From: a virus
Strand: one strand, 5' to 3'
DNA: 44,074 nt
Virus genome (UHGV): UHGV-0043902
Part shown: piece after piece, positions 1 to 31,769 of the stretch
How the letters are laid out: the number at the start of each line of letters is the position of its first letter
How positions within the stretch are numbered: the first letter of the stretch is position 1
The notes under the pieces: generated by a model
Databases searched by the model: none
The model's input: the letters and a program-made list of their open reading frames with translations, nothing else
What the model was told of the DNA's origin: nothing
Made by a program: the position numbers and the translations under genes

Positions 1-870
1 ACCGGTGTCGCCTTTAGGTCCTGGGACACCCTGTGGGCCGGTGTCGCCTTTAGGTCCTGGGACACCCTGTGGGCCGGTGTCGCCTTTTAGCCCCGGTGCA
101 CCTTGTGGGCCGAGCACCCTGTGGGCCGGTATCGCCTTTAGGCCCCGGGGCGCCTTGTGGGCCGGTGTCACCTTTTGGTCCCGGTTCACCCTGCGGACCG
201 GTGTCACCTTTAGGTCCTGGGACACCCTGTGGGCCGGTGTCGCCTTTTAGCCCCGGTGCACCTTGTGGGCCGGTGTCGCCTTTTGCCCCCGGCTCACCCT
301 GTGGACCGGTGTCGCCTTTTGGCCCCGGTGCACCTTGTGGACCGGTATCGCCTTTTAGCCCCGGTGCACCTTGTGGGCCGGTGTCGCCTTTAGGCCCCGG
401 CTCACCCTGTGGACCGGTGTCGCCTTTAGGCCCCGGCTCACCTTGTGGACCGGTGTCGCCTTTTAGCCCCGGTGCACCTTGTGGGCCGGTGTCGCCTTTA
501 GGCCCCGGCTCACCCTGTGGACCGGTGTCGCCTTTAGGCCCCGGCTCACCCTGTGGACCGGTGTCGCCTTTAGGCCCCGGCTCACCCTGTGGGCCGGTGT
601 CGCCTTTAGGCCCCGGCTCACCCTGTGGACCGGTGTCGCCTTTTAGCCCCGGTGCACCTTGTGGGCCGGTGTCGCCTTTAGGCCCCGGTGCACCCTGCGG
701 ACCAGTATCACCTTTCGGACCCGGAGCACCCTGTGGACCGGTGTCGCCTTTTAGCCCCGGTGCACCCTGCGGACCAGTATCACCTTTCGGACCCGGAGCA
801 CCCTGCGGACCAGTATCGCCTTTTGGCCCCGGCTCACCCTGTGGGCCGGTGTCGCCTTTAGGCCCTGGTG
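1..870 (-). repeat. Tandem 36-bp coding repeat array (about 24 units) encoding collagen-like Gly-X-Y repeats ([14 protein letters not shown]) inside the side tail fibre gene; runs off the window start
   Basis: Direct 36-nt periodicity visible in the sequence (ggtgtcgcctttagg(c/t)cc(c/t)gg...caccctgtgg(g/a)cc); translated minus strand gives perfect [10 protein letters not shown](E/A)P units. Confidence 0.9.
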
Positions 871-27793: not shown

Positions 27794-28065
27794 CTCCGGA
27801 ATGAAAGGATTTTTGAAACGTTCCCGCGTGCGCGTATTACCAGCACGCAGAACAGCAGATTAAGCCCCACCGCCAGCCAGTTCGCCGCTAACGGGCGACC
27901 GCACAGATAGCTGAGTGGTGCAAAGGCATACAGCAGCATCAGCAGCCAGGCCAGCCATGACATCAGCGGTTTGTGTCTGGAATCACGGCGACGATAAAAA
28001 AAGAGCGTCAGCACGATAACCGTGCATAACGCTACATTCAGCAATCCGGGAATGTTACTTAACAT
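27790..28065 (-). CDS. Small membrane protein of the lysis cassette (holin/antiholin-like, about 3 TM segments)
   Basis: ORF track 27790..28119; ATG at 28065 with SD ggaggaggcggcaATG; strongly hydrophobic. Confidence 0.5.
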   Translation of the reverse strand: MLSNIPGLLNVALCTVIVLTLFFYRRRDSRHKPLMSWLAWLLMLLYAFAPLSYLCGRPLAANWLAVGLNLLFCVLVIRARGNVSKILSFRR

Positions 28066-28447
28066 TGCCGCCTCCTCCACCCCGCAGACGGGAGAACAGG
28101 CCGGACACCAGTGATGCAATATCCTGCTGGTGGATGAACGAGAGAATCTTCACCGACACCACTGACACCAGCACTGCACACAGTGCGTCGACAGGCGCAC
28201 CGTCAAACCCTGTATGCTTTACCAGCCAGGATGCCAGAACCTCTGCGCCCAGCACGCCGATAATGAACGACACCAGAAAATGCGCCGCCACACGCCAGGC
28301 TGAAAGCGCCTGCGGCATCGTTGCCACAAATAACGCCCCGGCGAACGCACCAAACACAATCCCGAAATCCGTTCCGGTAAACAGCCCGAATACCGTCGCC
28401 CCGCCGAGCGCCACAGCCGTGCCGGAACCGGATAAGGGTTCAGACAT
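28055..28447 (-). CDS. Holin
   Basis: ORF track 28055..28519; ATG at 28447 with SD caggagaaaaaagtATG; multiple TM segments (..FGLFTGTDFGIVFGAFAGALFV.., ..FLVSFIIGVLGAEVLA..); first gene of the lysis cassette. Confidence 0.65.
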   Translation of the reverse strand: MSEPLSGSGTAVALGGATVFGLFTGTDFGIVFGAFAGALFVATMPQALSAWRVAAHFLVSFIIGVLGAEVLASWLVKHTGFDGAPVDALCAVLVSVVSVKILSFIHQQDIASLVSGLFSRLRGGGGGNVK

Positions 28448-28766
28448 ACTTTTTTCTCCTGTAAATAAAAAAGGGCCACCAGCGGCCCGTAAAAAACACC
28501 CCGTCAAAAGCACCGGCATCCGCAGATGCCCTTTGCGTGGCGTTATTTGATGCGCGCCAGATGTGGCGCAAAGAAATGAAATAAGACTTATCGGAAATTA
28601 AGGTTAATTTGAGGATTTAAACCACTTCTGAAGCTTAGTAGTATGAACATGTCCCCGGAAGGGGGCCAATACTTATTATTCTTCATGGACTTTGTCCCGC
28701 GGTCTTAATCCGACGACCGCGCTACTTTTCACCCTCTCGCAAATTGCTATCCAAAGGACGTTGTCC

Positions 28767-28799
28767 CACGAGTATTCCTGGATGCTCGTGTCTTTTTTT
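28767..28799 (+). terminator. Intrinsic terminator (plus strand)
   Basis: cacgag-tattcctggatg-ctcgtg followed by tcttttttt. Confidence 0.6.
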
Positions 28800-28814
28800 G
28801 TCCTGAGAAAGGAA

Positions 28815-28841
28815 TAAAAAAAACCGCCATATCTGGCGGTT
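28815..28841 (-). terminator. Intrinsic terminator (minus strand), about 370 nt downstream of the tRNA pair
   Basis: Plus-strand a8-accgcca-tatc-tggcggt; on the minus strand a 7-bp stem followed by T8. Confidence 0.7.
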
Positions 28842-29204
28842 GGTCAATGCAAGGGATGAATTTTTTAATTGTTATTAAACCGAGGCGTCGGGTGCCTCCC
28901 GAAGTATTCCGTGCTGTATGGATACTGTGGTTTCCCGCTAAACCGACTCTTTAAACCACCCTCGCTCTGAGGTGCGCCTCTTTGGTGTGATTTACAACAC
29001 CAGAATGATGCATCACCGACCCTGCCAGGAAATACAAAATCTCCACCGATAATGCACCATTCTGCTGTCGTAAAAAAATCAGCACTGAGGCTACACCTGG
29101 TCTCAAATCATAGCCAGAGAACAGAATGCTTTTTCAAAACAACCTGCTCCCACGTAATAAAAAATACGCCAGTGCCGCAATACAATAAGGCTTGTTTCAA
29201 ATGC

Positions 29205-29279
<75 letters not shown>

Positions 29280-29282
29280 ATA

Positions 29283-29358
<76 letters not shown>

Positions 29359-29597
29359 ATTGGTTCTTCAGGGGAGCGATATCACCAAGCAAAGAAGAGT
29401 CCCCCCCCCCTCAGAACCGTTTTCGATGATACGATTTAATATTCCAATCGCAACAACACTTTACGTCAAGTTATGTAAATTAATTTATATGTTTTTATTT
29501 TATGTGAATAATTCACTTTCACTTAAAATATACATAACAATATATAAACAAATTTATTTTGAAGGCGATTATTAAATGTCGTTTCTTATATCACACC

Positions 29598-29630
29598 ATA
29601 GAAACAACAAAACCCGCTCGATGGCGGGTT
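29598..29630 (-). terminator. tR'-like intrinsic terminator downstream of Q (late-operon 6S-type terminator)
   Basis: Plus strand aacccgc-tcgatg-gcgggtt; minus strand stem followed by TTTGTTGTTTCT; about 100 nt downstream of the Q stop. Confidence 0.55.
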
Positions 29631-29727
29631 CTATTAAAGTTCAATTGCGCTTGGTTCGCCTCGCGATACAGCTTTGCGAAGCATAGCTGAATTGAAGCAG
29701 TTTATTGGCAAAAATGCAATAACTTTT

Positions 29728-30183
29728 TTATTGGCTTTCTCCGCATAACGCTAATTTCATTGGTATATACAGAATGTGTTCAGCAACACCCAACCATGCA
29801 TCAATGCGATTTCTGCAAGTTTTCAAGCTCCAGCCAGGGCGATACTTATTTAACTGTTGTGCCATTTTCAGCTTACTCATCCCCCGCCCTTCATATCTTT
29901 GTCGGAGGATAAAAATCAATCCAGGATGCTCTACCATCACTTCACTAATTACCCGGTCAATACATAACGCCTCGGCATCAGTGCAATGGGACAGCCAGCT
30001 TTTTTGCTTACTGTCGATCATCTCACGCAAAAATGCTTCCAGCTCTGGCTTCTCTATTCCCGCTTTTTTCATTCTGCGCAGAGCTTCATTGATGGCTGTT
30101 TTCGTCAATTTTTTGGATGCCAGCAACTGGTTGAACATATTCCCCGTCTTACCGCCACCAATATACGACCAGCGCCCCCACAT
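29728..30183 (-). CDS. Late antiterminator Q (82/21-type family)
   Basis: ORF track 29728..30390 (220 aa); likely start at internal Met (MWGRWSYIGG...) after the ybcO-like gene; position immediately upstream of tR', tRNAs and lysis genes. Confidence 0.55.
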   Translation of the reverse strand: MWGRWSYIGGGKTGNMFNQLLASKKLTKTAINEALRRMKKAGIEKPELEAFLREMIDSKQKSWLSHCTDAEALCIDRVISEVMVEHPGLIFILRQRYEGRGMSKLKMAQQLNKYRPGWSLKTCRNRIDAWLGVAEHILYIPMKLALCGESQ

Positions 30184-30266
30184 ACGCAGTTTTCCCTGAA
30201 TCCAGACACTTTCCAGCGTGGTGAGACGAAGGTGTTCTCCGCTTTTTCCTGTATTCGTTGGGTAAA

Positions 30267-30557
30267 TCACAAATATCCCTCCTTTCTCCAGATTTCTTGT
30301 GTGCGAAAAACACCTTCTGCATGCATCAGGCGTAATTCTTCTTTGGTGTAATCGCTGGTTTTTACCCGCCCGTCGATTAAATCGTGGCACGAGCTACAGG
30401 CAATCGCGGCCTGCATATCGTGTGGCTTTATCGCTGTTCCGCACGTTCCCGCCAGTCGGTAATGCGCCAGCACAGACGTTTCGGGATTGTGATTGCAGTA
30501 GCCAGGAATTCTGACCTGGCACATCTGGCCCCGCGCCGCTTTACGTAAATCCACCAT
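30267..30557 (-). CDS. ybcO: YbcO-like protein (DUF1364, Cys-rich putative nuclease of the lambdoid nin region)
   Basis: 96 aa; MVDLRKAARGQMCQVRIPGYCNHNPETSVLAHYR...ACSSCHD resembles DLP12 YbcO from memory. Confidence 0.6.
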   Translation of the reverse strand: MVDLRKAARGQMCQVRIPGYCNHNPETSVLAHYRLAGTCGTAIKPHDMQAAIACSSCHDLIDGRVKTSDYTKEELRLMHAEGVFRTQEIWRKEGYL

Positions 30558-31477: not shown

Positions 31478-31725
31478 NNNNNNNNNNNNNNNNNNNNNNN
31501 NNNNNNNNNNNNNNNNNNNNNNNNNNNNNNNNNNNNNNNNNNNNNNNNNNNNNNNNNNNNNNNNNNNNNNNNNNNNNNNNNNNNNNNNNNNNNNNNNNNN
31601 NNNNNNNNNNNNNNNNNNNNNNNNNNNNNNNNNNNNNNNNNNNNNNNNNNNNNNNNNNNNNNNNNNNNNNNNNNNNNNNNNNNNNNNNNNNNNNNNNNNN
31701 NNNNNNNNNNNNNNNNNNNNNNNNN
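31478..31725. other. Assembly gap (248 N); true length and content unknown
   Basis: Run of n characters in the sequence. Confidence 1.
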
Positions 31726-31769
31726 CAGATGACGATCAGGGCGATTAACATCGCCTTTTGCTGCTTCAT
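31726..31769 (-). CDS. hokD: hok-family type I toxin gene, 5' fragment (HokD/RelF-like N-terminus), interrupted by the assembly gap
   Basis: Minus strand ATG at 31769 then MKQQKAMLIALIVI(C) exactly as the Hok/Gef N-terminal transmembrane start; ORFs reported across the gap are artefacts. Confidence 0.7.

Follow-up and report, generated by a model that had tools for sequence, protein, structure and literature searches.

Two predicted noncoding RNA genes face each other between the tRNA pair and the lysis genes of an Escherichia coli prophage

The late region of the prophage UHGV-0043902 contains a gap of about 700 bases between a pair of tRNA genes and the holin gene, and our analysis suggests, with a probability that we put at roughly 0.6, that this gap is occupied by two facing noncoding RNA genes that are insulated by terminators from the lysis genes. 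Most likely, the layout represents a variant of the convergent small RNA (sRNA) arrangement published for Shiga-toxin prophages, in versions that standard annotation misses. Prophage sRNAs encoded between Q and the lysis genes (AsxR, AgvB, STnc100/EcOnc27, and Pas) retune host sRNA networks in pathogenic E. coli. Judging by the locus described here, a commensal mouse isolate and about 4% of complete E. coli genomes would also carry the two-gene layout, in forms overlooked by Rfam-based annotation. If this is true, the locus would link an STnc100-type sRNA to the tRNA operon of a phage and contribute a candidate family of sRNAs whose cassettes can be exchanged, and the allelic series of seed regions could be used for target prediction.

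The window, i.e., the whole stretch of 44,074 nucleotides (nt) that was analyzed, is 100% identical to E. coli M8 (CP019953), a commensal mouse isolate. Its late region lies on the minus strand throughout, in the order NinB-like gene, DUF1364 (Rus-type) gene, Q, tRNA-Thr, tRNA-Gly, the gap, holin, second holin, M15 endolysin, and spanin (Table 1). The initial annotation had delimited a structured noncoding region at 28520-29204; its noncoding structured core was confirmed, but these limits proved too narrow, as the feature has the holin leader (28451) at one end and the tRNA promoter (29453) at the other. Immediately past the Q stop codon, we observed a pR′-like promoter (TTGCAT, 17 nt, TTCAAT at 29719..29691, minus strand) and downstream of it, within the region 29600-29719, a strong terminator (29636..29605, minus strand); together they predict a short RNA of about 80 nt, comparable to lambda 6S RNA or StxS. 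About 3.2 kb from the gap toward higher coordinates, the nin region of this prophage carries a gene that RefSeq assigns to the Hok/Gef toxin family (L003:6161-6316; about 31610-31765 of the window, minus strand). At the start of the window, an 11-mer that surfaced as a by-product of a BLAST run recurs at positions 82, 242, 350, 458, 638, and 746 (82-756, plus strand), which suggests a repeat array.

Table 1. Features between Q and the holin gene, in window coordinates
Feature	Position	Strand	Details and basis
Q (DUF1133)	stop at 29728	minus	
Sigma-70 promoter of the tRNA/structured-RNA unit	29426..29453	minus	−35 TTGCGA (29453..29448), 16-nt spacer, −10 TATCAT (29431..29426); promoter scan
tRNA-Thr (UGU)	29283..29358	minus	ARAGORN; Rfam tRNA, 73.8 bits
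tRNA-Gly (UCC)	29205..29279	minus	ARAGORN; Rfam tRNA, 65.6 bits
Trailer domain 0, three-way junction immediately 3′ of tRNA-Gly	29080..29177	minus	RNAalifold, 20 homologues
Trailer domain 1, long imperfect hairpin of about 33 bp	28991..29074	minus	RNAalifold
STnc100-like sRNA module (predicted)	28816..28986	minus	covariance model R1
Intrinsic terminator of the tRNA/structured-RNA unit	28814..28841	minus	stem 28841..28822 (AACCGCC..GGCGGTT), U's to about 28814; terminator scan
Promoter of the plus-strand RNA (predicted)	28616..28644	plus	−35 TTTAAA (28616-21), 17-nt spacer, −10 TAGTAT (28639-44)
Candidate convergent sRNA, about 149 nt	28651..28799	plus	covariation, fold z, conserved promoter
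Plus-strand RNA, 5′ hairpin	28651-66	plus	
Plus-strand RNA, conserved U-rich single strand	28667-86	plus	
Plus-strand RNA, SL2a	28687-97	plus	
Plus-strand RNA, SL2	28698-28721	plus	
Plus-strand RNA, allelic cassette	28722-55	plus	
Plus-strand RNA, SL3	28756-66	plus	
Plus-strand RNA, terminator	28767-28790	plus	stem CACGAG..CTCGTG, T7 run to 28799; terminator scan
Holin-proximal leader with two terminator-like hairpins	28451..28552	minus	hairpins 28530..28515 and 28488..28473 + T6; terminator scan
Holin	28447..28055	minus	ATG at 28447
Module A (holin leader)	28440-28552		
Module B	~28546-28811		
Module C	28812 to tRNA-Gly		

The minus-strand unit has the same sense as the late genes and would be self-contained, comprising its own sigma-70 promoter, both tRNAs, and a trailer that ends in a strong intrinsic terminator. 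The TTG of the −35 hexamer and the TAnnAT of the −10 hexamer are invariant and equally spaced across six upstream regions whose mean identity is otherwise 59%. The trailer occupies a 3′ETS-type position, between the last tRNA and the operon terminator, and is predicted to be cotranscribed from this conserved promoter. The leader between the promoter and tRNA-Thr carries a G10 homopolymer (29401-29410, minus strand), the length of which differs among homologues: it is about G5 in phage 683R6 and interrupted in others.

The trailer is 391 nt long (29204..28814, minus strand) and folded better than every shuffle tried (z = −6.8), and alignments of 20 to 35 distinct homologues resolved it into three domains. 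The consensus energy of the three-way junction was −39.5 kcal/mol, compared with −15.1 for the reverse complement (RNAalifold), and that of the long hairpin was −35.1 kcal/mol on the minus strand, compared with −1.5 for its reverse complement. Within the two helices of the long hairpin, 97.5 to 100% of the cells were paired, with an AU↔GC swap (19/15) and many G·U pairs, and the hairpin is a candidate RNase III or processing site. The minus-strand structure comprises 63 pairs, with 97.6% of 2,204 cells paired versus 40 to 58% with slid partners, and reached −56.0 kcal/mol versus −24.3 on the reverse complement. Moreover, G·U cells outnumbered A·C cells about 30:1 (279:8, and 204:7 for the three-way junction), so that the trailer fold is specific to the minus strand. 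Given these strand-specific consensus energies and the G·U excess, we conclude that selection acts on the minus-strand RNA; the covariation is largely shared by descent among a few clades and therefore reflects few independent events.

The third domain, i.e., the last ~170 nt of the trailer, is composed of a closing helix (GAGGCG/CGCCUC, 28980-28975 with 28887-28882), internal hairpins, a UCGGG-AGGCA-CCCGA motif, an A/U- and ARN-rich linker, a C/U-rich single-stranded stretch (UUCAUCCCUUGCAUUGACCAA at ~28864..28844, minus strand), and the terminator. Here, 98% of the cells were paired versus 43 to 52% in slid controls, and the closing pair of the helix (GAGGYG/CRCCUC) covaries between UA and CG in 21 and 14 sequences; one such switch occurs inside a single close-knit clade. 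The GGGAGGCACCCG element may form a local hairpin or pair with the upstream CGGG, and the covariation does not separate the two. A covariance model built from 27 homologues of 28986..28816 (R1) was searched with filters off against 66 kb, and its best nonself match was the bona fide STnc100 of the E2348/69 prophage PP5 (L096:195-355), which aligned end to end (positions 1-172) with 37.5 bits and an E value of 4e-7 to 1.4e-6; background matches reached at most 15.5 bits. The alignment matched the closing helix, the small hairpin inside it, the (C/U)CGGG-AGGCA-CCCG(G/A) hairpin by the closing strand, the linker, and the terminator. In 236 kb, the top three out-of-family matches were the same STnc100, a PasD-like element in L032, and the STnc100 of Sakai Sp5. 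Within Sakai Sp5, STnc100 was the top match, barely over background (20.4 versus 18.3 bits). The matches of R1 to PasD1 and PasD2 were marginal (9.8 and 12.6 bits). STnc100, also named EcOnc27 or sRNA103, is an Hfq-binding sRNA located 75 nt after stx2B (PMC12711010, PMC12370729), and PasD has been reported as its relative (bioRxiv 10.64898/2026.05.13.724894).

In the opposite direction, the Rfam STnc100 model (RF02076) scored 11.5 bits on the window and 22.0 to 22.4 bits, full length, on the homologues L060, L048, and L050, compared with 123.6 and 207.7 bits on true STnc100 and 37.7 to 41.4 bits on PasD. The module thus lies outside the family by the gathering threshold of 47 bits, and it agrees with the family in architecture (closing helix, GGGAGGCACCCG hairpin, linker, and terminator), in reciprocal profile similarity, and in place (late strand, from Q/pR′ to the lysis genes of a lambdoid prophage). 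We conclude that this part of the trailer is a divergent relative of STnc100 below the Rfam membership threshold. The linker contains many A-R-N triplets, and the scaffold stays constant while the C/U-rich single strand differs among alleles; we infer that these may be the marks of an Hfq-dependent sRNA with a seed region. The scan against Rfam covariance models, proposed as a check in the initial annotation, returned only the tRNAs above threshold, along with subthreshold matches to sroB/ChiX and STnc100; at permissive thresholds, too, the tRNAs alone passed in the window and its homologues. Matches to miRNA-type families were rejected, as they merely reflect the long hairpin. The PasD-like element mentioned above (L032:4653-4835, minus strand; 26.6 bits with R1) is 80% identical to PasD nt 47-95 and lies upstream of a truncated trailer copy, and that late region therefore holds two STnc100/PasD-type elements.

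Terminator-like sites are enriched around the gap: we found 9 between 28000 and 30000, compared with 2.3 ± 1.4 in shuffles. The terminator scan recovered both facing terminators, on the plus strand at 28767..28799 and on the minus strand at 28815..28841, where the initial annotation had placed them. The predicted 3′ ends of the two facing units are 14 nt apart, and the stem of the minus-strand terminator is kept across 35 homologues while its loop is variable. Four minus-strand terminators lie between Q and holin, namely, the tR′-like site, the one that ends the trailer, and a pair in the holin leader. This leader, a separate mosaic module that accompanies this holin type (e.g., in phiP27), stops ~20 nt short of the holin Shine-Dalgarno sequence. 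The GC-rich hairpin with its T6 run lies just before this sequence, and holin would therefore be reachable only by terminator-resistant (Q-modified) polymerase.

On the plus strand, two hexamers, TTTAAA and TA(G/A)TAT, are invariant or nearly so in 26 homologues at a distance of 17 nt and precede a predicted RNA that also folded better than every shuffle tried (z = −4.8). Of its cells, 92.9% were paired versus 34 to 48% in slid controls, and 8 pairs were changed on both sides, with covariation between CG and UA in the 5′ hairpin, between UA and CG in SL2, and in the terminator stem as well. The 5′ hairpin corresponds to the GC hairpin gtccccggaagggggcc singled out in the initial annotation; it is located at 28651-28667 and covaries between CG and UA in 11 to 12 of 25 distinct sequences. 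With the hairpins covarying and both predicted RNAs surpassing their shuffles, the suggestion of a structured region with several GC hairpins was borne out. The guess that small RNAs are encoded here is supported by comparative evidence, which predicts both a 3′ extension of the minus-strand tRNA transcript to ~28815, the 3′ part of which is related to STnc100, and a plus-strand RNA ending at 28799 that has its own conserved promoter. The 5′ two-thirds of the plus-strand RNA are conserved, and two unrelated cassette alleles occur between conserved flanks. The module had no Rfam match at an E value of ≤10 within 27800-30400, and an nhmmer profile of it detected no relatives outside its own family when run against every locus retrieved, Sakai Sp5 and the prophages of E2348/69 among them. 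The Pas sRNAs of E2348/69, located from their published coordinates, were rejected as relatives because blastn-short yielded chance words only.

The segment was detected by megablast in 448 of 5,426 complete E. coli genomes (78 to 100% identity), 215 of which (about 4% of the total) carry it at a coverage of at least 80%, and no RNA annotation covers it among the matches listed or the records fetched. It also occurs in phages SerU-LTIIb and vB_EcoS-683R6, beside different Q and holin genes. In a "distant" blastn search of 50,697 phage records, only 2 carried the region, and Stx phages shared the holin leader only. A scan of GTDB species representatives for a motif of the plus-strand module found Escherichia ruysiae only, plus three chance matches, and diagnostic sequence strings of the region did not occur in a full-text literature search. 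BLAST against 87 loci from a pattern scan of IMG/VR defined modules A to C. Module B, which holds the plus-strand unit, is absent from some prophages, leaving 64 to 70 bp between A and C; where present, it spans ~265 bp, and in other prophages it is replaced by different noncoding cassettes of 706 or 750 bp. As it is absent, present, or swapped among prophages, module B acts as an independent insert bounded by promoter and terminator. The replacement cassettes (L023:2216-2923, L025:3782-4533, and similar loci) lack convincing open reading frames (ORFs), and Rfam finds nothing in them; the 750-bp cassette consists of a second tRNA-Gly and a second copy of the trailer-like terminator region. In SerU-LTIIb (L001, KU052038), the block of tRNAs, trailer, holin leader, and holin is tandemly duplicated upstream of the LT-IIb toxin genes, and the trailer of the second copy is partial.

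These features suggest how the locus might work. Processing of the tRNAs, possibly with RNase III cutting at the long hairpin, would free the 3′ part of the minus-strand transcript as a 3′-end-derived sRNA, which would bind Hfq via its U-tail and ARN-rich linker and pair with mRNAs via the C/U-rich single strand, allele specific on a kept scaffold. From the other side, the conserved plus-strand promoter would drive an RNA of ~149 nt up to the facing terminator, or possibly of ~80 nt in alleles with a U-run after SL2, and this RNA could act as a trans-acting sRNA or as an sRNA sponge. Its full complementarity to the leader of the late transcript might in addition make it a cis-antisense brake on read-through into holin. 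The four minus-strand terminators would keep lysis dependent on Q yet permit independent expression of the tRNAs and the sRNA. A bolder proposal, which we regard as quite unlikely, is that the whole trailer (three-way junction, ~33-bp hairpin, and STnc100-like domain) is one functional tRNA-linked RNA and the plus-strand RNA a modular sponge with an exchangeable 3′ decoy cassette, the two together forming a promoter-to-terminator noncoding "moron" pair that rewires host sRNA networks in commensal and non-Stx E. coli.

The minus-strand structure could instead be a purely cis-acting leader of the late operon, with terminators enforcing Q dependence and hairpins separating the tRNAs from the lysis mRNA or stabilizing it, and with no trans-acting sRNA. 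It lies on the strand of the late genes, there are four terminators between Q and holin, its ~33-bp hairpin and three-way junction are without counterpart in STnc100, and inspection by eye revealed no convincing internal promoter for the STnc100-like part. We nevertheless consider this reading unlikely, as the unit has its own conserved promoter and its own terminator, its 3′ part resembles a family experimentally shown to bind Hfq (PMC4104026, PMC12711010), and a single-stranded segment that varies among alleles on a kept scaffold is what would be expected of a seed region; moreover, the roles of cis leader and trans-acting sRNA can coexist. For the plus-strand RNA, the strand preference was weaker than for the trailer: RNAalifold energies were equal on both strands (−15.9 versus −16.5), and in the four-member L004 group the plus-strand terminator is decayed and the substitutions favor the minus strand (G·U:A·C of 8:18). 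The thresholds of a simple promoter scan also did not flag the plus-strand promoter. These observations would agree with the absence of any plus-strand RNA, the hairpins at 28651-28790 working only in the minus-strand late transcript and the promoter and terminator likenesses being fortuitous. However, only the plus side of the terminator hairpin carries a U-run, the two hexamers keep their sequence and 17-nt distance even in homologue L020, the flanks of which have diverged, and G·U exceeds A·C by 33:5 in the main group of 22 other sequences. The module is also gained and lost as a unit bounded by promoter and terminator, and a convergent sRNA at exactly this place follows the published rule (PMC4104026), as does AsxR in Sp5; fortuitous signals are thus an improbable explanation.

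A third reading, that the region is a scar or decayed protein cargo, such as toxin or moron genes, or that it encodes small proteins, could draw on the hypothetical coding sequences annotated across it in Sx181 (WP_122653682.1, 118 amino acids) and phage 683R6 and on a 32-codon ORF (28686..28588, minus strand) that is intact in 31 of 37 distinct homologues. However, the annotated sequences are not conserved and run across the terminators. Of the 12 ORFs of at least 25 codons in the region, the other 11 lose their frame to stops or 1-nt indels in most of the homologues, and even the best-conserved stretches contain 1-nt indels. The 32-codon ORF shows no third-position bias (23, 17, and 19 variable columns by codon position), has more nonsynonymous than synonymous codon differences (101 versus 52), and is truncated to products of 13 to 16 amino acids in four allele groups (6 of 37 sequences). 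No ORF of the region matched Pfam or PHROGs, so that neither a conserved frame with codon-position bias nor a family match points to a gene or pseudogene, in keeping with the earlier view that the region contains no convincing ORF. The accompanying idea of a deletion scar or degenerate remnant fared less well: hundreds of E. coli prophages conserve the region, with compensatory changes and G·U substitutions specific to the strand, every candidate frame carries 1-nt indels, and outside the holin leader its DNA resembles neither stx nor other cargo regions nor cargo-bearing phages. Alignment of the homologous Q-tRNA-lysis regions, another check proposed at the outset, revealed modules and covariation and gave no support to a degenerate gene remnant. 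Because strand-specific RNA covariation explains the conservation of the region, we judge protein cargo to be highly improbable, and the result argues against hypothetical-protein annotation across the segment.

The reading of two facing RNA genes places the locus among known systems. In eight prophages of EHEC Sakai, Tree et al. (2014) described Hfq-bound "convergent sRNA genes" that occupy the moron site past pR′ (PMC4104026), and the gap likewise holds two opposed terminator-ended units, both structured and conserved, beyond Q and the tRNAs. The slot, which follows Q, pR′, and the tRNAs and precedes the lysis genes, is shared with these pairs, as is the combination of a sense and an opposite sRNA with facing terminators. 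The remark in the initial annotation that cargo such as stx sits here in many lambdoid phages was apt, as a direct check of Sakai Sp5 gave the order Q, three tRNAs, stx2AB, STnc100 (plus strand), and facing AsxR (EcOnc02; minus strand). The 3′ ends are only 1 to 2 nt apart in Sp5, however, and the window, in contrast to Sp5, has no toxin or other protein cargo between the tRNAs and the sense sRNA but 220 nt of extra conserved structured RNA that joins the sRNA to the tRNA operon; its facing partner shows no sequence relationship to AsxR/AgvB and has two to three times their length.

With STnc100 and PasD, the sense unit shares the late strand and the whole series from closing helix to terminator that R1 aligned, including the single-stranded linker, whereas its internal hairpins and seed region differ from those of STnc100, and its upstream neighbor is a tRNA operon instead of stx2B or a DUF3927 gene. 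The plus-strand RNA resembles AsxR and AgvB (RF02703 and RF02702) in its slot, in its orientation convergent with an STnc100-type sRNA, and in having a conserved and a variable part. It lies outside that family, as it gave no covariance-model match at an E value of ≤10 in 27800-30400, measures ~149 (or ~80) nt versus 51 to 60 nt, and has a conserved 5′ part with a variable 3′ cassette, whereas in AgvB/AsxR the 3′ ~42 nt are conserved and the 5′ end varies. PasA and PasC of enteropathogenic E. coli E2348/69 (PMC8550237, bioRxiv 10.64898/2026.05.13.724894) likewise start ~200 nt upstream of holin on the opposite strand, are directed away from it, and have tandem terminators that yield short and long forms, as is predicted for the plus-strand RNA, but they share no sequence similarity with it (blastn-short, and nhmmer with nothing in L094-L097 or L102).

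The sroB/ChiX model (RF00368) matched 28903..28814 over its full length with 31.3 bits (E value of 0.025 in a 421-nt search), below its gathering score of 44. A hairpin, an ARN/A-rich linker, a C/U-rich stretch ending in UUGAC, and a terminator are common to both, the seed sequence differs, and the likeness probably represents the resemblance of Hfq-binding modules rather than homology. Finally, Lalaouna et al. reportedly described, in 2015, 3′ETS-leuZ, which is freed from the 3′ external spacer of a tRNA operon and acts as an sRNA or sponge. The trailer lies, like 3′ETS-leuZ, between the last tRNA and the intrinsic terminator of its operon, but it is far longer, highly structured, and phage borne.
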